Assembly: GCA_963727805.1 (NCBI GenBank)
Contig: CAVSHF010000003.1
Location: 1,504,001-1,568,000, forward strand
Length of the DNA: 64,000 nucleotides
Origin: an uncultured Nitrospiraceae bacterium
GTDB taxonomy: Bacteria; Nitrospirota; Thermodesulfovibrionia; Thermodesulfovibrionales; Dissulfurispiraceae
Direction: 5' to 3'
Shown piece after piece: positions 24,779 to 51,961 of the stretch. A program made the translations under genes and the position numbers. Position 1 is the stretch's first letter. Every line of letters begins with the position of its first letter. The notes below the pieces were generated by a model, which searched no databases, was not told where the DNA came from, and saw nothing but the letters and a program-made list of their open reading frames with translations.

Positions 24779-25486
24779 TTATTTTTCCACGAAATACCCG
24801 ACACCCCGCATGGTCTTTATGTATTCAGGATTGTTTGGATCATTTTCAATCTTTGCCCTGAGTCTCCTGATGTGGACGTCCACAGTCCTCGGTTCGACAT
24901 AAACATCATTTCCCCAAACCATGTCCAGAAGCTGTTCCCTGTTGAATATTCTCTTTGGCCTTTCCGCCAGGAAGAGGAGCAGCTTGAATTCGGTCGCGCT
25001 CAGCTTGACGTGCCGGTCCCCAACCATAACTGTAAAACGTTCCTTGTCAATGGTCATTTCTCTTATCTTCAGGATACTCTCAGCCTGCCGCGCCTCCTCG
25101 ACCGTCTCGACAGGCTGTTCAGCCCTGCGAAGTATGGCCTTCGCCCGGGCGACCAATTCCCGCGGACTAAAAGGTTTGGTGATGTAATCATCTGCACCCA
25201 CCTCAAGCCCGATGATTTTATCAATCTCTTCGCCCTTTGCGGTCAGCATTATGACAGGGATACGGGACGTTTCGGAAGTGTTACGAATCCTCTTGCAGAG
25301 TTCGATCCCCTGAATACCGGGAAGCATGAGATCGAGAAAGATAAGGTCATATTTTTTAGAGTCTATTTTTTTCAGGCCCTCTTCGCCATCGTGGGCAGTG
25401 TCGACCTCGAAGCCCTCTTTCTTCAGATTATAAGCGACAAGTTCGACAATATCCGCTTCGTCATCTATGACTAGAATGTTCTTCAT
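24779..25486 (-). CDS. phoB: PhoB/PhoP-like OmpR-family response regulator
   Basis: LDLMLPG, GADDYITKPFS and RTVDVHIRRLR. Confidence 0.85.
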   Translation of the reverse strand: MKNILVIDDEADIVELVAYNLKKEGFEVDTAHDGEEGLKKIDSKKYDLIFLDLMLPGIQGIELCKRIRNTSETSRIPVIMLTAKGEEIDKIIGLEVGADDYITKPFSPRELVARAKAILRRAEQPVETVEEARQAESILKIREMTIDKERFTVMVGDRHVKLSATEFKLLLFLAERPKRIFNREQLLDMVWGNDVYVEPRTVDVHIRRLRAKIENDPNNPEYIKTMRGVGYFVEK

Positions 25487-42627: not shown

Positions 42628-43227
42628 TTAGATCAGTTTTTTTCTAATCCCCACCAGCCCCATCAGACCGGAGCCAAACAGCCAGGCTGCAGCCGGAATC
42701 GGGGTGGCTGTGGCGGGTGTGAGGCTTGCTGTAGCACTCCCACTCCCACCAGTTAAATATGACGCCCAATATGCATAAGTGTTTGGACCGGTGGCCCCTA
42801 TACCTATGGCGGGAACATTATCAGTGGAGCTATTTACAGACCCATTTACAACGAGAGGGTTATTAAGAAGCCCCGAACTTTGCACGAGTATCATCCCATT
42901 ATACTGATCAGCAGGATTAAATACAGGGTTTGAACCAGGAGATAACAGGTTATCAGCTCCACTTAAATTAGCACCAGCCCCATCACTATTTTGAGCAGTA
43001 AGCATCGGAGCAAGCAAGGCATAACTAATACCATTGTTTAAACTGCCATCTCCAGTTAGAGAAGCACCAGTAGCAAGTAACGGACCATTACCATTGGAAG
43101 CCGTGTAAAGTGTACCTGTAAAACCGTACTTGCCATCTGTACTAAGAAAGCTAAACGAGTAATCAGCATATGCCGAACTATAGCTGATACAGACCATAGC
43201 CACCATTAAGAACAATAATTTCTTCAT
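42628..43227 (-). CDS. PEP-CTERM/VPLPA-CTERM-type surface protein
   Basis: Signal peptide MKKLL..AYA; S/T/G/N-rich; C-terminus TPIPAAAWLFGSGLMGLVGIRKK; GGAGG SD. Confidence 0.88.
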   Translation of the reverse strand: MKKLLFLMVAMVCISYSSAYADYSFSFLSTDGKYGFTGTLYTASNGNGPLLATGASLTGDGSLNNGISYALLAPMLTAQNSDGAGANLSGADNLLSPGSNPVFNPADQYNGMILVQSSGLLNNPLVVNGSVNSSTDNVPAIGIGATGPNTYAYWASYLTGGSGSATASLTPATATPIPAAAWLFGSGLMGLVGIRKKLI

Positions 43228-43392: not shown

Positions 43393-43468
43393 AAAAAAAC
43401 CCGGAGCAGAACCTAACTGGTTCAAACTCCGGGTTTTCTGGTCCCTTAAAAGGTCAGCAAAATGCCCG
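43393..43468 (-). ncRNA. Conserved leader RNA + terminator, copy B
   Basis: CGGGCAUUUUGCUGACCUUUUAAGGGACCAGAAAACCCGGAG...CUCCGGGUUUUUUU. Confidence 0.75.
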
Positions 43469-43490
43469 TACCCTTATGCTAATTAATTTG

Positions 43491-43544
43491 ATTATACGAG
43501 TACCCTGTTACAAGATTATTACGAGATGATTACAAGACTATGAA
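43491..43544 (-). promoter_or_regulatory. Pho-box-type promoter (copy B unit)
   Basis: Minus strand TTCAT, GTAAT, GTAAT, GTAAC at 11-bp period; 10 bp; TATAAT (43496-91). Confidence 0.75.
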
Positions 43545-43588
43545 GGCTGGCTCGCGCAGACTATTAGTAATAAAATTAGGGTGACTTA

Positions 43589-43735
43589 AGATTGATAATC
43601 CCTTCATGGATGAACGATCATCCGGATTGGCGTTGACAATCGAAGGTTTTATCAAAGAAGACAACTTTTGTTATCTCCACCTTTGCCAGTCGTGCCGATC
43701 GCGCCTTGCCGAACAGGCTGACACGTTTTTGTAAT
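43589..43735 (+). repeat. 147-bp direct repeat, copy 2 (phoH 3' fragment)
   Basis: Matches 42040-42186. Confidence 0.95.
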
Positions 43736-43779
43736 CTTAGGCAGCGTGGATGTGGGATGCAATAACGTGCTTCCCATGC

Positions 43780-43867
43780 GTTAGCTGAGTTTCTCCATGT
43801 CCTTATGCTGCTTTTGCAGCCTTTTGCTGTCTCACTCAAATTTGGTAGTGTGTTGGAACTTAAGCAC
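43780..43867 (-). pseudogene. YafQ-like toxin remnant
   Basis: GTG start overlapping the antitoxin stop; reads MLKFQHTTKFE*DSKRLQKQHKDMEKLS*. Confidence 0.55.
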
Positions 43868-44126
43868 TATTTGTTTATATTCTCGAAGAACTCATCAAGA
43901 CTATTATAGGAATGCAGTTCTTTCCCTTGGCGAGCCTTTTGAAGCGTTTCCGCTGTCTCTTTGTTCGGAAGCCCGACATTGGAGGGAAGTCGCCTTCTCA
44001 ACGTTACCTGTTTGTAAAAAAGGGGATTACCTCCGTGCTGGACAACCCCAACTTTTCAAAAATGCCTTCAGCCCCTTTCTTGAAAGTAGGCTCCACTCGT
44101 GCTCGTATAGTCTCTGTCTTCGCAAT
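43867..44126 (-). pseudogene. RelB/DinJ antitoxin, frameshifted
   Basis: AKTETIRARVEP..AEGIFEKLGLSSTE, a frameshift, then FYKQVTLRRRLPSNV.LPNKETAETL. The start codon reads ATT. Confidence 0.75.
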
Positions 44127-44543
44127 GTCTATGATTACCCTGCTTTTTGAAGATGTGCTTGCTTTTTCTCTTGTACCCCATTTGAGGAGCAAAAGCAAAT
44201 GATGGTTCTAAGCATAAATTAGCGCTGGCCAAAAGGAACGATGAGAAAGGCGCGCCGATGATTTTCTCTCTGGTGTGCGGAGGCATAGCGGAATAAGTAA
44301 GGCCATCCATTTTTTACACGGCGAGGTGTATCTTTGATTTGCGCAGAGCAGCATAGGGTATTTCTTACACCTGAAGCTCAACACCTCGGGCATCTCATCA
44401 ACATTGATGATTTCCTCCAGAAAGAAATTGTTAAAATCAGGTTCTCAGGTTCTTCTTATACAGCGAATACTCAAAGATGTCATTACAAGTGCCTTTTTTT
44501 TGGCATTAAATGTTTTTTACAGAGTTCAACAGAGCAACTGTCG

Positions 44544-44984
44544 TCACTTTCCCCTTTCCCCCGATTGCTTCCAATTGTTTTTGAAAACTTCTTGAGCTTC
44601 CTCTATTGAGAAATCAGGCGGCAGTTGGGTATATCGCGGTTCATAAACGGTGACGCTACCGTCTTTGGGAATCATTGAGTATTGTCCCTTGATGGATAAT
44701 ATTGCGCCGACTGTCATATCGGAGAGAATCTTTATGCGGGCATCTTCTCGATTCTGGGAGAAATGGAACTCTAATCCTAACTTGAAAACAAATCCGTAGC
44801 TGTCGAGGGCAATGCAATCAATGGCAATGTGCATCGCTTTGTCAGGATGGATATATGACTCAACTTTTTCTATTCTGACAAATGTATTGAGTTCAAACCC
44901 GCCGCAAAACAGATAATGATTGAAAGCGGTAACTTCCCCACTTTCGATGTTCTTAATGTTCCCACTTACTATTTTGTCTTTCAT
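44544..44984 (-). CDS. Hypothetical protein
   Basis: 146-aa ORF with AAGGA SD; no recognised motif. Confidence 0.55.
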   Translation of the reverse strand: MKDKIVSGNIKNIESGEVTAFNHYLFCGGFELNTFVRIEKVESYIHPDKAMHIAIDCIALDSYGFVFKLGLEFHFSQNREDARIKILSDMTVGAILSIKGQYSMIPKDGSVTVYEPRYTQLPPDFSIEEAQEVFKNNWKQSGERGK

Positions 44985-45849
44985 TCTTATCCTTCTGATG
45001 ATGATTTATCTGGTGGGCTGCTCAAGCATATAATTCATAGCCGACAAATCTTTGTGAAGTAAGATCATCATTTCTCAACGCCCCAGTGTATCATCATAAT
45101 AAATTGTAGCCGAAACGACGCAGTAAAGCATCTAATTAACAAGAGAAAAGGCATGAAATATAAGAAGTTACTAATTTTGTGACCCCCATCACAAAAAATC
45201 AGCCAGATTAATTCACTGAGCCGCCCAGCGGCATTGCGGCATTTTGGCCACATCTCCAGTTGGCTGGGGAATCTCGATTATAGCGGTGACAATTGTAGCC
45301 AACTGCACATTTAGTAGGACCTTGTGGTTTCGCTTTCTCCGTGCGATTTCATTCCGCAGGAGCAATCTTTCCCGCCGATGGTCAGTGACTCCTAAAATTG
45401 TGCAGAATATTGACCCTAGTCCAGCAAAGAAACGTTGCCTAAGCGACGCCGTATATTAACTGAACATTCTTATTGGTATGCTTACTTTACATACACGCAA
45501 ACATGCAAGTGTTGTTGCAACTTTCCATTGATAGGTGACCTGAATGCATGTTGCGGATCAATGCCGGGGACCGTATTTAAAGCTGTGTGAGTGTAGATTG
45601 TAAAATGGAAGTAGTGACAGACAGCTTGTGGGCTGCCTTGGTAGTGCCCTGTAAGACACACAGCAATCGCGGAGGGTTAAACTCTGTAAATCGGCAACGC
45701 CATTTTCTCTCAGGTGGTTTATTTTCAGCCCTTCAATTCGATTTTTCCGCCTTCTCCGTATATTCCAGGAAAGGCCATCGCATTAAGGGCGTCGTGGCGT
45801 CAACCAGTGCTTTAACTATAACTTATTTAAAAAGCTTATCTCTCTAAAA

Positions 45850-45903
45850 GTAACGCAAATGTCACATTTAGTTCACTTTCTCGCAACAATTATTTGCTAT
45901 AGT
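45850..45903 (+). promoter_or_regulatory. Pho-box-type promoter (copy A unit)
   Basis: GTAAC 45850, GTCAC 45861, TTCAC 45872, GCAAC 45883; 10 bp; TGcTATAGT with -10 at 45898. Confidence 0.75.
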
Positions 45904-45915
45904 TTAATCAGGTTG

Positions 45916-45994
45916 CGGGCACTTTGCTGACCTTTTTGGGGAACCAGAAAACCCGGATATGTCATTCCAGTCCAATGATATATCCGGGTTTTTT
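45916..45994 (+). ncRNA. Conserved leader RNA + terminator, copy A
   Basis: CGGGCACUUUGCUGACCUUUUUGGGGAACCAGAAAACCCGGAU...AUCCGGGUUUUUU. Confidence 0.75.
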
Positions 45995-46036
45995 AGCTTC
46001 TTGAGGAATAAAATACAGTAAAATAAGGAGACTGCA

Positions 46037-46714
46037 ATGAGGAAAAGAGTACTAAGTGGATTGTTTCTGTTGGTTGCAGGACTAATCTTCCTGATCCCTT
46101 TTCAGGCCAGTGCTGCGTTGACGTACACAATGACCGGTTATCAGAACCTGGGTCCGTTATATGCGTCCGGGGAAATAACTGGCAATTTGACTGGCGATCT
46201 GATTATTGCGCCTCTGTATTCATTTTGCGTTGATAATCAGGCGCTTCTTTACCAAAATACCCCTTATGCAGCGACGTTAAGCCCGATAGGCAGCAACCAG
46301 GGGCTGCTTGAGTCGGCATATCTCATCGCCACATATGCTCCGAGCAATACTGCCTTGACGGACGTTAATAAGGGAGTGGAACTTCAGTGGGCTATGTGGA
46401 TGGCTTTAGGCCAAGCATCACCTTTAGGATCACCTTCAACTAGTGGCAGCTTGGCGAATACATATTCGTCTATTTACACTCAGGCTCTGCAATATCAATC
46501 AAATGCTCAAACGTGGTACACCAGTGCTAGTGCTGGCGATCTTGCTCAGTATGCCAGCATGTACCAGGAACTTCAGCTCCAAGGTAGCCAGAATCTGTTG
46601 TTGGTTCAAACTTCCACCGGAGGTAATCTTCCAACTCCCATCCCTTCAAGTATTGTTCTTCTCGGTCCCGGCCTAATTGCTCTCGGTGCTGTCAGAAGAA
46701 GATTTCAGATGTAG
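46037..46714 (+). CDS. PEP-CTERM/VPLPA-type surface protein
   Basis: Signal peptide; YSFCVD..LQWAMW; C-terminus PTPIPSSIVLLGPGLIALGAVRRRF. Confidence 0.88.
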   Translation: MRKRVLSGLFLLVAGLIFLIPFQASAALTYTMTGYQNLGPLYASGEITGNLTGDLIIAPLYSFCVDNQALLYQNTPYAATLSPIGSNQGLLESAYLIATYAPSNTALTDVNKGVELQWAMWMALGQASPLGSPSTSGSLANTYSSIYTQALQYQSNAQTWYTSASAGDLAQYASMYQELQLQGSQNLLLVQTSTGGNLPTPIPSSIVLLGPGLIALGAVRRRFQM

Positions 46715-46725
46715 GCTTTATCAAT

Positions 46726-46764
46726 AAAAAAAGGCAGGGTCAGAAACCGCCCTGCCTTTTTTTT
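46726..46764 (+). terminator. Bidirectional intrinsic terminator
   Basis: A-tract, GGCAGGG..CCCTGCC stem, T8. Confidence 0.85.
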
Positions 46765-47149
46765 CTTTGCAGGATCGAACCGGACAGGATAGTTTCAGGG
46801 CCACATCGCAACTCTTCGCCGGCGGCATCTTCATACGGGATCCGTCGTGCTGATCTAATCGATCAAATAGCAAATTATTAGCTATATTGCTTCGATTATT
46901 ACTTCGGGGTACTCCGCAAATATTGAGGGATAGAGCTGCAATGACTCTAAGCAAAAGCCAAGCAGGCGCATTTGACAGTTTCTAAATTGTTGAAGAAGGC
47001 CGCCTGATCTCAATTATTTAGGAACAGTTTGCAGCAGTGCCGTTTCCTGAAAATCAAGATTTGTACACGATATAAACGGCTGGCTAAGGTCGCCTAACTG
47101 CTTGATTCGCGTTGGATGTGGGAATCGCCCCATGATGATTACGTTTTAA

Positions 47150-47290
47150 ATAGAGCGTCTTCACCGTGTCGGGTACGTTTTCAATGAACTGTGAGTAGTT
47201 AACCGTGTTTTGCGTGACCTGCCTCTTAAAGGCGGCCTCCGCGATCCGCTTGATAAGTGGCACCCGTACCCCTTCTTTCCCACTTACATG
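47150..47290 (-). mobile_element. Degenerate IS256-family transposase fragment
   Basis: Minus strand SGKEGVRVPLIKRIAEAAF resembles the GKDG.L.PLIK...EAAL N-terminal motif. Confidence 0.4.
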
Positions 47291-47711
47291 ATGTGAGCAG
47301 GGCCTGCTTCAAAATCATTAGTATGGCCCTCTTATTTTATGTTGCCGGCAAGCCTTTGCCATGTGAGATTGCGCACAGAAATGAACACATGCTTGATTCA
47401 TGATCACTCTGCAGCGTACAAGTGGAAATAATCAGCGTCAGTGCTCAAGATTTCCCGGAAGCGCGCACAAACTAATGATCCCTAAAAATGCTCATCACCG
47501 TCGGCATATCACAGTGGTCCTTTCTTGATGGCACCGACCTCTCTTTCAATTACTACCCTTTGCAGCTGCCGATAATTTTTCAGCATCTTTTGGTATCTCC
47601 TCCGGACGGATCGAGAGGCCATTATGATGCCAATGAATGTAACGATAAATTAACTAATGCCAGGCTTTATTTATGGTATTGTTAATGTATAAAATTTAGG
47701 AGGTGGTTTAG

Positions 47712-48473
47712 TTGAAGAAGATTCTATTTGCCCTGCTCGTTTTCTTTCTGTTATTTCCTATGGCATATGCTCGCGGTGCTGACACGAAATGCGGGACTCT
47801 GACTAAGGAAGAAGCAACTGCGATTGTGAAGCATTTGGATCCTAATTTGAGCGCTATCGATGTTAGAACCAGCCCTGCAGAAGGTATGTGGGAGGTTACC
47901 GTCAATACCGGGGCAAAGAAAGTACTGGCATATATAGACTGCTCGAAACGTTACATCATATTAGGCGAGCTGCTCGACACAAAAGAAAAAAAGAACCTGA
48001 CGCGTGAGCGGATGACAGAGATCAACAAGGTTGGCGTTTCGTCCATTCCCCTAGATGATGCACTCGTTATGGGCGATAAAAGCGCCCCTCACAGGCTGAT
48101 TGTATTCGATGATCCTGAGTGACCATACTGCGCCAAACTTCATCAGGAGATGAAGCAGATTGTCGAAAAAAGAAAAGACATTGTTTTTTTAATAAAGATG
48201 TTCCCCCTTGCCATGCACAAGGGGTCGTATGATAAGGCAAAGGCCATTGTGTGTGAGAAGTCACTCAAGCTTCTTGATGATGCTTTTGAAAATAAGGAGC
48301 TACCTCCGGCAAAATGCAATACACAGGTGCTGGAAGATAATATAACATTGGCGGGCAAGCTTGGTATCCAGGGCACACCTGCAATTATATTCCCGGATGG
48401 GAGGATCGTACCAGGGTATATGCCTGCAGATTCTCTGATTAAGGAAGTGGATGTGGGTACTGCTCCAAAGTAA
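47712..48473 (+). CDS. DsbC-like thiol:disulfide oxidoreductase, selenoprotein (UxxC)
   Basis: The two ORFs share one frame. The active site reads FDDPE-TGA-PYC, a SECIS-like hairpin follows, and GIQGTP and GYMPA are present. Confidence 0.85.
48123..48158 (+). promoter_or_regulatory. Bacterial SECIS-like hairpin
   Basis: CUUCAUC-AGGA-GAUGAAG (48138-55), starting 15 nt after the UGA. Confidence 0.7.
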
Positions 48474-48589
48474 TCGAATATGCCAGCGAATGAACGGGTG
48501 ACCGGAATGCATCGGAATGGGTGGGAATCGTCCGGATAATGCAGGATTATGATCTTTTTTGACAGCACGCATGGCAATAAAGTGGTGTA

Positions 48590-49120
48590 TTATCGGGAAT
48601 TTCACTGAGCGTCGCTGGAGAGAGCTCTAGCCCGCACATGTCCTCCAGGTGGTGGGGCATTATCCGCGTAGCTCATTTTCAGACCTTGGCACGCCACGAT
48701 TCTGTCATTAGGGGCTTTGCCCAGAGTATTCAGTCAATTCTTTACAAGTTCGGGTTTGAACGTGGCATCCTTGTCACGCGAGGTTGCAAGCTCGAAAGTG
48801 ACGTAGTCGGAGCAAACGGTATTTTGTGTTTTTTATCATTCTCTTCGTTCTTTGTTTCTGGCGGTTCGGAGTCGATATGGGATTCTACCGCCCTTTTAAG
48901 GTGGCCTTCAAGATCCGTTTGATAAGAGGCATCAGTCCCTCATCTTTCCCACTTGGGGTATGCTAGCCTTGAGTTTCTCAATGATTTCCTTCTGAAAGGC
49001 TTCAAATCAAATCCGGTGGACAATAACTTCTTGAAATCCTGTTCCATATCAATCTTCCATACATAGATTGTAGCCCATCAGGCTATCCAGAATAATTGAC
49101 ACAGTTTATTTCATAGACCG
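48590..49120 (-). mobile_element. IS256-family remnant (decayed transposase + left end)
   Basis: Fragments EAFQKEIIEKLKA, LMPLIKRILKA, FELATSRDKDATFKPELVK and HLEDMCGLELSPATLSEIPD, broken by stops and frameshifts. IR-like GGTCTATGAAATAAACTGTGTC at 49119-49098. Confidence 0.7.
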
Positions 49121-49354
49121 GAGACGGGCGCCACTCCAGACTCTTAACGAGGGTCTTGCTATGCATAACAAATTCATCTATGAACATCTAGAAGGGAAGA
49201 GTCTGCGTAGCCGCGAATAAAGCCCTTAACCGGAAGGCCAACTTTGAATTCAATTAGTTACAGCGCACGCGAGCCGCAGGGGGATATATTTCCCTGCGAC
49301 GCGCGATTTCTTCACCTATCATGTTCGACTCCCCGAACTGCAAAGAAGTCGTAA

Positions 49355-49978
49355 CTAACACTCAACCCCGTGGCGCTGTACTTTAGGAAATTCACGCTTT
49401 CTCCCCATCACACGCAATCCCCCGATCATGGACAGTCCGGACCCTAATAGTAAAACGGCAGAAGGAATAGGAGTCGGACTGGGATTGGGTTCGCCTTTCG
49501 CCCAGTGCCTATGCTCCCATTGCCCTTTCTCCATCCATTGCCACTTATTGTGGGCGTCTTCATCTCCGCCGCGCCAATGCTCACCTTTGAAGCCTCGGAG
49601 CTGTGCTGAGTCGTCTGCCCATTTCTGGTCTGGGTCGTCCTGTTTTGCCTTCGCCCAGCGTCTATTTTGCTCGGAATCTTTCTTCTCCCATTGTAACTGA
49701 TACTGGACATTTTCATATCCGCCGAACCCAATTTCACCCTTTAAGCCTTGAAGCCGTGACTGCAAATATCGCTGTTCCTCACTGCTCTGACCGCTGGCTA
49801 GCGGGTAGGTATTCCCCCATGAGGCAACATCCGTCTTTGTCTGCTCCCACGTTGTCCCGGATTGAAATACACCGTTGGACTCCTGGTCGGCGCTTATACT
49901 GGCCTGGGCTGAAACGCCGAGACTAAGAATGCCGATTAATACAACTACAGTCATAATGTTTTTTACGACAGTTTGCAT
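49355..49978 (-). CDS. PEP-CTERM-type surface protein with internal repeat
   Basis: Signal peptide; C-terminus PTPIPSAVLLLGSGLSMIGGLRVMGRKR. Confidence 0.8.
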   Translation of the reverse strand: MQTVVKNIMTVVVLIGILSLGVSAQASISADQESNGVFQSGTTWEQTKTDVASWGNTYPLASGQSSEEQRYLQSRLQGLKGEIGFGGYENVQYQLQWEKKDSEQNRRWAKAKQDDPDQKWADDSAQLRGFKGEHWRGGDEDAHNKWQWMEKGQWEHRHWAKGEPNPSPTPIPSAVLLLGSGLSMIGGLRVMGRKREFPKVQRHGVEC

Positions 49979-50098
49979 ATTATCTCCTTTCTGATCTTAT
50001 CCAGGCCCTTCGTTGTTATATGACAAGCAGCAAAGAGCTTCTATTAGGTTAATAAGTTACTCTTAAGACGGATGCCTTACACACCAGCCTTAGTGCGA
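49976..50098 (-). repeat. Duplicated ~123-bp intergenic leader, copy 1
   Basis: Similar to 50297-50420; ends in GAAAGGAGA-ATG. Confidence 0.8.
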
Positions 50099-50119
50099 TT
50101 CGGAATTGATAACAGTGAT

Positions 50120-50299
50120 TCATTCCATAATCCCCGCTGCCTTCAACGCTTGTGTAACGTCCAGGGAATTCTCATCGCTGGATCACAGTTCTAGAGCTAA
50201 TTCAGACTCCTTTTCACCGAAGATGAGCTGGTAGCAGAAACTGAGCAGCCCGACTAATAACACAACAGCAATAATACTTCTCCTGATGAAAGCATTCAT
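50120..50299 (-). pseudogene. Short or degenerate secreted-protein ORF
   Basis: MNAFIRRSIIAVVLLVGLLSF..LEL*SSDENS..; the N-terminus resembles that of 49355-49978. Confidence 0.45.
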
Positions 50300-50420
50300 A
50301 GAATCTCCTTTCTGATTTTATCCAGGCACTTCGCTTTTTCTCGCAATACGAGCAGCAAAGAGCCGGCATGCGGTTCATAAATCAAGCATAAGACAGATGT
50401 CTTACACAGCCTTAGTGCGA
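50297..50420 (-). repeat. Duplicated ~123-bp intergenic leader, copy 2
   Basis: Similar to 49976-50098. Confidence 0.8.
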
Positions 50421-50431
50421 AGCAAAATGGA

Positions 50432-50824
50432 TTACTGCGATGCCTCATGCAATCCCGCCTCCTGAGATACCTTAACGCCTGATGCATTCTCACCGCTGGG
50501 CAACATATCTAGCTGAAATGCTGCATTCTTTTCGTCAAAGATAATCTTGTAACCAAGGGTCTTAGATAGACCAATTCGAAACTTCCCCGATGAGAGATAA
50601 ACACTGCCGTCTGATAGTTCACCCACATCAACGCCCGTCGGGCCTCCCTTGATTTCAGCCAGCTTGTCATACCGGATACCTTCTCCGGCCTTATCAGCAA
50701 GAAACTTCCTCAGAATCATTTCGATCAAACATGAACGCGAGCATCCAGACTCACGGCTGATGTCATCGAGTAATTCCAACAGTTCCTGCTTTGTCCGGAA
50801 AGATACAGTCGCCGTTTTAAACAT
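50432..50824 (-). CDS. Ribbon-helix-helix (CopG-like) protein with C-terminal extension
   Basis: TVSFRT..EL.E.LD.ISRE.G.SRS.LIE..L; AGGAGG SD. Confidence 0.8.
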   Translation of the reverse strand: MFKTATVSFRTKQELLELLDDISRESGCSRSCLIEMILRKFLADKAGEGIRYDKLAEIKGGPTGVDVGELSDGSVYLSSGKFRIGLSKTLGYKIIFDEKNAAFQLDMLPSGENASGVKVSQEAGLHEASQ

Positions 50825-50870
50825 CTACAATCCTCCTTTCATCCATAATGTCAACCCAACCTGCCCCATT

Positions 50871-50962
50871 AAAAAAGCCCGAATCGATAAGAAAAGACTT
50901 CTTTTCTCGATCCGGGCTTTCTGGTGCCAAAGCAGGCGATTCTGCTGGTCAGCAAAGGACCC
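50871..50962 (-). ncRNA. Conserved leader RNA + terminator, copy C
   Basis: GGGUCCUUUGCUGACCAGCAGAAUCGCCUGCUUUGGCACCAGAAAGCCCGGAUCG...CGAUUCGGGCUUUUUU. Confidence 0.75.
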
Positions 50963-50981: not shown

Positions 50982-51046
50982 ATTGTACCACCTGAGTATT
51001 ACCATTGAGTGACAAAGGCATTACAAAAGTTTTACAAATGTATGGA
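50982..51046 (-). promoter_or_regulatory. Pho-box-type promoter (copy C unit)
   Basis: Minus strand GTAAA, GTAAT, GTCAC, GTAAT at 11-bp period; 10 bp; TACAAT (50987-82). Confidence 0.75.
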
Positions 51047-51423: not shown

Positions 51424-51696
51424 ATGAAGACTATTACGGTTTCCGCAAAAGGGCAGATTGCTTTGCCGAAGGAGATTCGGGAGGCCTTACGTATCGAGAC
51501 GGGTTCGCAGCTTACGCCGGTTATAAAAGACGGTAAGCTCATTCTTGAACCGGTCGTGACCATTCCACAGTCTCAGGCTTGGTTCTGGACTCCCGCGTGG
51601 CAAAAGAAGATTGCCAATTCGATGGACGACATCAAGAAAGGACGCGTTTGCACCTTCACGTCGGTCAAGGAAATGAGGAAAGCCCTTGGCTCTTAA
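51424..51696 (+). CDS. AbrB/MazE/SpoVT family antitoxin
   Basis: VSAKGQIALPKEIREAL and QAWFWT..WQ; GGAGG SD. Confidence 0.88.
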   Translation: MKTITVSAKGQIALPKEIREALRIETGSQLTPVIKDGKLILEPVVTIPQSQAWFWTPAWQKKIANSMDDIKKGRVCTFTSVKEMRKALGS

Positions 51697-51961
51697 GACA
51701 TCTTTCACGGAGTCTGCCATAGGCGATCTAAATAGACTCCCAAAAGAGATCCGTTTAAAATTCTTTGATCAAGGCGAGCGTCTTCTGAAAAATCCTGCTC
51801 ACCCTTCATTGAGAAATGAGAAACTATCCGGCCGAGAAGAATGGGCGTTCAGTATCACAATGAACTATCGTGCTGTTTACATTCGCACATACGAAGAAAT
51901 TATAATCGTTGCCGTCAGCACCCATAAGGATGCGTTAGGGAACGGGCAGAATGCCAGATAG
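51686..51961 (+). CDS. RelE/ParE-superfamily toxin
   Basis: FTESA..DL..LP, NPAHPSL..EKL.G and YRAVY; overlaps the antitoxin. Confidence 0.8.
   Translation: MALKTSFTESAIGDLNRLPKEIRLKFFDQGERLLKNPAHPSLRNEKLSGREEWAFSITMNYRAVYIRTYEEIIIVAVSTHKDALGNGQNAR

Follow-up and report, generated by a model that had tools for sequence, protein, structure and literature searches.

The 64,000-nucleotide (nt) stretch analysed here (the window) lies on contig C3 of the 3.9-Mb genome of an uncultured Nitrospiraceae bacterium (G000) and carries three copies, A, B and C, of a leader RNA whose hairpin core overlaps an intrinsic terminator and which is linked, outside the window, to a small open reading frame (ORF) for a protein of 44 amino acids (aa). 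Re-reading of the sequence located the copies, A on the plus strand and B and C on the minus strand, where an earlier reading made from the letters alone (the sequence-only reading) had placed them. The putative antiterminator core hairpin extends over positions 45917..45954 (+) in copy A, 43431..43467 (-) in copy B and 50914..50962 (-) in copy C, in which the apical stem is long, and the cores gave 55.5, 57 and 56.4 bits, respectively, with the covariance model R1. Across the family that includes them the conserved hairpin is 38-50 nt long and is made up of a GGG/CCC stem, a 2-nt bulge, YUUU/AAAR, a bulged G, CUG/CAG, an A opposite an NAM loop, CC/GG and a free apical stem. The overlapping terminator lies at 45948..45994 (+) in copy A, where its 5' arm is the 3' strand of the core (U6, -25.7 kcal/mol; L006), at 43393..43437 (-) in copy B (U7, -26.2 kcal/mol; L003) and at 50871..50920 (-) in copy C (U6, -26.4 kcal/mol; L009).

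Hexamers resembling a -10 element were found upstream of each copy, as had been proposed, and end 13 (A), 23 (B) and 19 (C) nt before the first G. The promoter predicted for copy A (45849..45903, +) comprises 11-bp-spaced PhoB-type half-sites at 45849-45865 and 45882-45887 and an extended -10 at 45895-45903; that of copy B (43491..43534, -) comprises three half-sites of the same spacing at 43534-43507 and a -10 at 43498-43491, and that of copy C (50982..51036, -) four of them at 51036-50998 and an extended -10 at 50990-50982. A gene pair for a MazE/AbrB-type antitoxin and a ParE-type toxin (51424-51961, +) adjoins the copy C promoter.

Copy A precedes the gene of a 225-aa exported protein (46037..46714, +) and copy B that of a 199-aa exported protein (42628..43227, -). 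Both had been called PEP-CTERM-type, and both do carry VPLPA/PEP-CTERM-like tails, but their VPLPA-CTERM scores of 18.8 and 20.7 bits fall below the curated cut-off of 25.35. Copy C precedes the gene of a 130-aa protein (50432..50824, -) with a weak N-terminal ribbon-helix-helix (RHH) match (RHH_1, E 0.017); similar genes also follow the RNA in loci L007, L025, L074 and L085.

The RNA family and its predicted default state

The strict core pattern gave seven matches in G000 and none in each of five shuffles, and all seven lie on C3 between 1.547 and 1.697 Mb. The R1 model returned seven matches at 53-57 bits, with the next best at 19 bits. The window had no match at the gathering threshold in Rfam 15, which includes atoC, ribonucleic antiterminator (RAT)-type elements and riboswitches, in agreement with the sequence-only reading; at E<=10 the copies matched only RybB (19.3 bits, in the terminator part) and mir-1204, neither of them credible.

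Homologues of the RNA were found in related genomes by pattern and covariance model searches. The first alignment (A1) had its core fixed by the search pattern. Eight of 94 rows judged to be chance matches (L022, L043, L051, L068, L069, L073, L094 and L098) had been left out of it, as had four rows from L001/L002, of which three were brought back as L011, L013 and L014 and the second tandem copy was omitted. Since the core of A1 was set by the pattern, its invariance is not evidence, and the structure was therefore tested on loci chosen by the 44-aa protein, without using the RNA. Among the 80 distinct protein-selected rows, both partners change in six of the 13 pairs, so that compensatory covariation is present, and the middle pair of CUG/CAG switches from U-A to C-G nine times. 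In this alignment 96% of cells are paired, none of 500 shuffles reached its score and slid controls were at most 59% paired, although the alignment was fitted to the covariance model and kinship among rows inflates the shuffle test.

The covarying pyrimidine-purine pair of the sequence-only reading is U-A in copy B and C-G in copy C as described, but copy A has a C-A mismatch; over 85 rows the pair is CG in 64, UA in 10, UG in one and unpaired in 10. The middle pair of CUG/CAG (UA 67, CG 9, UG 4) covaries better. Of the unpaired bases said to be invariant, two come close in the protein-selected rows, namely the bulged G (78/80) and the A of the 3' loop (76/80); the A of the 5' loop is kept in 57/80 and the C of 'AC' in 61/80. 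RNAalifold placed the lower stem of the pattern-selected alignment in a shifted register; the register given above is better supported by the protein-selected set. The three copies are members of a real, conserved RNA family, undescribed as far as we found.

Terminators were analysed in the 166 copies with enough flanking DNA. A U-tailed hairpin using the 3' CCC of the core is present in 143 of them, so the claim that core and terminator are mutually exclusive folds holds well beyond the window, and in these copies an aptamer-like core and an expression platform exclude each other as in a riboswitch. In 160/166 copies the core is predicted to form its GGG/CCC stem as it is transcribed, while the full-length fold is predicted to be the terminator in 141/143, the median predicted energies being -13.9 kcal/mol for the core and -25.0 kcal/mol for the terminator. 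Certain second tandem copies keep the core and have no good terminator. These folds support a cis-acting antiterminator/terminator switch whose predicted default state is OFF. Since the terminator is the stronger fold, something would have to hold the weaker core hairpin for read-through. The RNA dataset consisted of one run, with a word share of 0.05 and contigs mostly from other organisms.

The exact pattern occurred in 84 stretches of the one-genome-per-species contigs. According to the record labels the carriers belong mostly to Nitrospirota (Thermodesulfovibrionales) and to Desulfobacterota-type lineages (Geobacteraceae, Syntrophales, Smithella, Syntrophorhabdales, Syntrophobacteraceae, Desulfobacterales and Desulfatiglandales), with Deferrimicrobium in addition. 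The record of L078 is labelled Pedobacter sp., yet its genome, G217, falls within the sample of the family of G195, and the label is probably wrong. The distribution is patchy: the pattern search found the RNA in 3/68 genomes of this family, and the model search in 4/151 genomes of this class, 16/124 in the family of G195 and 10/150 in the class of G198, the three samples together comprising 425 genomes. The element is multicopy, one genome having as many as 11 matches, and two pattern matches came from viral contigs.

The small ORF, its putative Pho boxes and the target genes

The 44-aa small ORF of G000 (G000:C3:1621601-1621732) stops 21 nt before a tandem master copy of the RNA. A paralogue of FSG type with an acidic tail (L364; G000:C3:1618060-1618185, minus strand) lies 3.4 kb from it in the same gene island, has no RNA downstream and is possibly an antagonist or heterodimer partner of the 44-aa protein. 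The family comprises 305 representative sequences when reduced to 50% identity (E<=0.001), and the codon-position entropy of 83 sequences (0.43/0.28/1.24) is that of a coding region. The predicted fold is a helix followed by a beta-hairpin (pLDDT 89.9), and by inspection the protein has no signal peptide, unlike the other universal island genes. Searches with the family gave no significant sequence match in Pfam, NCBIfam or the PDB and only weak, scattered matches in PHROGs, and no relative was found in viral contigs. With the structural model, Foldseek gave no match at E<=0.001, and the best VIA hit (a MinE domain, Z 4.0) is not meaningful.

Eighty metagenome loci were picked by the protein alone, of which 75 had at least 200 nt of downstream DNA and five had less. 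In 60 of the 75 the RNA follows the small ORF on its own strand, no more than 400 nt past the stop, and 95/98 RNA matches are on the strand of the ORF. The distance from stop to core is 2-15 nt in 25 of the 60 loci and ranges overall from 2 to 337 nt. Among the 425 genomes, 30 have the RNA, 28 have a strong protein match and 27 have both, four weak protein matches of 22-23 bits being excluded. In G059 (L361, C29) the small ORF contains internal stops and the RNA copies behind it are degenerate; a gene resembling a phosphoesterase by eye follows them. Two remote homologues, L234 (G209:C87) and L360 (G057:C43), each precede a different hairpin that overlaps a terminator-like stem. In L233/L236 (G277:C88) two paralogues of the small protein are encoded one after the other, with an RNA-like sequence far downstream. 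The 44-aa protein is the best candidate for the switch that the linkage suggests.

Direct repeats spaced 11, 22 or 33 bp are enriched in leaders that lack the ORF (37/82 against 5.6 in shuffles), and 11-bp repeats precede the small ORF in 56/81 upstream regions (19.7 in shuffles). The same repeats precede the gene read as pstS in G000 (C3:1663877). Because they are enriched upstream and also stand before pstS, these boxes, common to leaders, small ORF and pstS, support the PhoB-type promoter that had been proposed, and PhoB probably binds them. The candidate activator is the response regulator of G000 that scores best as PhoB-like, encoded in the window at 24779..25486 (-; 277.9 bits, slightly below the cut-off of 296.2).

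A PEP-CTERM-like tail was found by pattern in 67 of 114 distinct first downstream proteins; 35 further copies have no callable gene. Scanning of 28 of the other 47 targets gave TpsA, TpsB, glycosyltransferases and RCC1, FG-GAP and fn3 repeat proteins, together with subtilase-type proteases, two alkaline phosphatases, one phosphoesterase and PilZ proteins, so that the targets appear to be mostly PEP-CTERM-type and other exported proteins, with phosphatases and a phosphoesterase among them. Tandem variant copies of CCG/CGG form and without an obvious terminator precede a PilZ-type gene at G198:C3:116030-116193 (L159/L164/L166), and at L276 and L312 a single copy, with its terminator, precedes a PilZ gene.

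Comparison of 10 islands showed that the copies cluster in a conserved island. All ten contain genes for a PBP-like exported protein, an FKBP-like lipoprotein, TpsB and a giant TpsA; seven contain genes labelled by inspection as MotA/ExbB-, TonB- and SurA-like, and six contain polysaccharide export genes. The leaders follow the order promoter, small ORF, hairpin/terminator (often in tandem), often a riboswitch of the c-di-GMP-I (cyclic di-GMP) clan, and PEP-CTERM gene. The riboswitch was found downstream of the element in 14/20 hand-picked loci; in G000 it has seven matches over the cut-off, c-di-GMP and cyclic GMP-AMP (cGAMP) being the candidate ligands, one of them behind the tandem master copies (L104; G000:C3:1621260-1621338, minus strand, 52.1 bits). 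The Rfam scan of the window gave no match of this clan at copies A, B and C.

Behind copy C the order RHH gene, short ORF, PEP-CTERM-type gene was as the sequence-only reading gave it, but the RHH assignment is weak and the tail was recognised by eye only. The short ORF reads as a 38-aa hydrophobic protein (50183..50299, -), and the third gene codes for a 207-aa exported protein (49355..49978, -) with no match in the hidden Markov model (HMM) scan. Two segments of about 140 nt, 75% identical (50300-50445 and 49979-50135, -), precede the 38-aa ORF and the 207-aa gene, each with a Shine-Dalgarno sequence at its end; one copy is conserved in G027, and neither segment matched Rfam. They are either a local duplication or a second leader element. 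Elsewhere in the window, an in-frame TGA near position 48120 interrupts a DsbC-like gene (47712-48473, +), which therefore reads as two ORFs.

The proposed antiterminator and its alternatives

Taken with the linkage to the small ORF, the overlap of core and terminator suggests that the leader hairpin is a protein-dependent antiterminator to which the 44-aa protein would bind in trans under a PhoB-type promoter, a reading to which we give a probability of about 0.6. The sequence-only reading had named a riboswitch and a protein-dependent antiterminator side by side, and the evidence favours the latter. In the proposed mechanism PhoB would activate the boxed promoters when phosphate is short. 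The small ORF, because it is positioned before the first terminator, would be expressed first and its product made at once, the targets staying OFF. The protein would accumulate, probably as an oligomer, and bind the stem with its bulge and internal loop; the bound hairpin would then block the terminator, and RNA polymerase would read through all copies in trans into PEP-CTERM, adhesin and exopolysaccharide genes. Such a feed-forward AND gate of PhoB and the small protein would delay and threshold a costly surface and matrix programme.

Several observations weigh against this proposal. Four RNA-positive genomes (G281, G285, G607 and G627) have no protein match and G533 has the protein and no RNA match, genome completeness being not established for any of these. 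The exported PBP-like island gene is likewise confined to RNA-positive genomes (9/124), and four island genes are present in all 10 islands, so that the co-occurrence is island-level; because another island gene is equally restricted, co-occurrence alone cannot single out the 44-aa protein. Many of the metagenome loci are near-identical and the locus counts therefore overstate independence. A crude -10 test was non-significant (16/82 against 8.3 in shuffles, shuffle maximum 17). The protein model was raised above hitch-hiking within the island because a mini-protein gene with a hairpin-terminator recurs in unrelated regulons, as set out below for DUF2292.

The alternative that survives best is still unlikely: the core would be a small-molecule or ion ON-riboswitch, sensing for example a starvation nucleotide or a phosphate-linked signal, and the small ORF merely a co-regulated gene of the island. 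The expression platform is of the transcriptional ON-switch type, aptamers as small as preQ1-I and guanidine-II exist, tandem copies occur, the c-di-GMP-I-clan riboswitch that follows the element in the 14/20 loci recalls multi-input leaders, and the four RNA-positive genomes without a protein match would be accounted for. A single hairpin with two near-invariant unpaired bases, however, in which conservation is concentrated in the paired stems, fits an aptamer poorly. A riboswitch would also leave unexplained why the ORF stops within 15 nt of the RNA in 25/60 loci and why DUF2292 genes and the two remote homologues stand before other hairpin-terminators.

It is less probable again that the core is bound by another protein, for which a NusG paralogue (UpxY/LoaP), the RHH-like protein and some housekeeping factor would be candidates. 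A leader hairpin is bound by LoaP, according to PMC12691694, and G000 encodes an UpxY-family protein above the cut-off; the LoaP hairpin is described in that source as a UNCG tetraloop element apart from the terminator, whereas here the apical loop varies freely. UpxY was over the cut-off in 0/124 genomes of the family in which 16 carry the RNA, a distribution that ruled out UpxY/LoaP as the partner, and the RHH-like gene is not among the clusters common to at least three of the 10 islands. The UpxY-family gene of G000 (G000:C3:534121-534405, minus strand; L100) lies beside a MarR-EPS-like regulator gene and, by eye, an rmlC lookalike.

Lower still we place the absence of a regulated switch, in which the element would be a fixed attenuator lowering output, or the terminated RNA of 80-100 nt would act as a trans small RNA or protein sponge. 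The predicted dominance of the terminator (141/143) would suit this, as would the second tandem copies that keep the core without a good terminator, but compensatory changes maintain the pairing of the core though terminator formation destroys it, and the genes towards which the copies point form a coherent set. Very improbable, finally, is translation-coupled attenuation by a ribosome that would mask the 5' strand of the hairpin on finishing the small ORF, the peptide having no role in trans: the stop codon 2-15 nt before the core in 25/60 loci speaks for it, but 82/167 copies, A, B and C among them, lack an upstream ORF of this kind, A, B and C begin 13-23 nt past the -10, the distance from stop to core spans 2-337 nt and the conservation of the ORF is that of a folded domain.

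Known systems and the DUF2292 parallel

The RAT of the BglG/SacY/LicT systems is a small hairpin, interrupted by two asymmetric loops, that shares its 3' strand with an intrinsic terminator; it is bound by a dedicated protein and occurs in several copies per regulon. The RNA described here is also a hairpin overlapping a terminator and predicted OFF by default, but its linked protein has 44 aa and its targets are surface and matrix genes. The protein lacks CAT and PRD domains, as judged from the lack of Pfam, NCBIfam or PDB matches in a check that covered the linked 44-aa family. In the hut operon (HutP) and in phage lambda (N) the gene of a small regulator lies between the promoter and the terminator that it overcomes, HutP being activated by a ligand and N acting by processive modification of the polymerase. 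The 44-aa gene likewise lies between a promoter and the terminator that it is proposed to overcome; its protein fold and RNA are different. By analogy, the proposed switch would work like RAT/BglG with a gene order like that of HutP or lambda N, and it is a member of neither group.

LoaP/UpxY proteins promote read-through of leader terminators for extracellular products, and LoaP needs a leader hairpin (PMC12691694); here there is no UNCG loop and the hairpin overlaps the terminator. The c-di-GMP-I (GEMM-I) riboswitch of the RF01051 clan shares the leaders, downstream of the element, yet is a separate RNA. The literature searched describes neither the RNA nor the 44-aa protein, though supplementary motif lists of RNA-discovery papers could contain the RNA: a term look-up in the main texts of PMC11109978, PMC8632094 and bioRxiv 10.64898/2026.10.21.760802 gave no PEP-CTERM motif, and their supplements list many more motifs. 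The family is likely an uncatalogued RNA using protein-dependent attenuation, a mechanism already known elsewhere.

A parallel was found in DUF2292 genes. In the comparison set a hairpin of about 22 nt starting with GCYGAC often lies downstream of them, and its 3' strand begins a terminator. The first pattern found this hairpin-terminator within 130 nt in 13/30 genes, and 22 distinct GCYSAC-type hairpins were identified in 36 DUF2292 loci of Geobacterales and Bacillota, including Cytobacillus and Bacillus yezD; in predicted folds their 3' strand continues into a U-tailed hairpin. Three loci scanned against Rfam left the hairpin unmatched. DUF2292 proteins have about 45 aa and a predicted helix-beta-hairpin with strands at 21-28 and 31-39, the same elements as in the 44-aa protein, with which they share a gapless G-x8-G-x8-E register (G21/G30/E39). 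The gene order is also alike, with a hairpin 3' of the gene and its 3' strand starting the terminator. The RNAs resemble each other in the 5' GCYGAC and the terminator overlap only, the shorter DUF2292 hairpin having a different 3' strand. Two named DUF2292 loci adjoin genes of sulfate assimilation or transport, in contrast to the Pho and surface regulon here. In the Cytobacillus and Bacillus loci (L353, L355) yezD stands after what by eye resembles an S-adenosylmethionine (SAM) riboswitch and before the DUF2292 hairpin-terminator, and in L353 sulfate-assimilation genes follow yezD. The oscA gene is co-transcribed with a sulfate-binding-protein gene, according to PMC3596284.

We propose, tentatively and at somewhat less than even odds, that the RNA and the 44-aa protein are a branch of an unrecognised superfamily of mini helix-beta-hairpin antiterminators that would include DUF2292/YezD/OscA and phage relatives, each reading its own bulged, terminator-overlapping hairpin, and which here would form a delayed, all-or-none, PhoB-driven switch for the PEP-CTERM, giant-adhesin and exopolysaccharide programme. 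Sequence support for such kinship is weak in the direct comparisons: the R1 model gave no match on DUF2292 hairpins, which are not the same RNA family; hhalign of the two protein families gave probabilities of 1.6% and 0.3%; HMM cross-scores averaged 3.0 and 0.8 bits; and the Atlas link to DUF2292 (score 0.78) is a lead only. Membership of the 44-aa protein in PF10055 was considered and rejected, since 0/29 members match and G000 has no PF10055 match. The literature searched contains no DUF2292 role as an antiterminator, no pairing of DUF2292 with a hairpin and no mechanism for DUF2292/YezD/OscA.

If the proposal is true, the RNA-binding antiterminators would gain a new, very small class, and two orphan families would gain a testable function: the 44-aa family and probably DUF2292/YezD/OscA, which is tied to sulfur starvation. 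Reconstitution should be simple with a protein of 44 aa and an RNA of 40 nt, and families that differ in their hairpins could be used as orthogonal genetic parts. For the environmental anaerobes that carry the element it would explain RNA-level gating of PEP-CTERM and matrix genes, in leaders where a protein switch and a cyclic-dinucleotide riboswitch would be joined to PhoB control.

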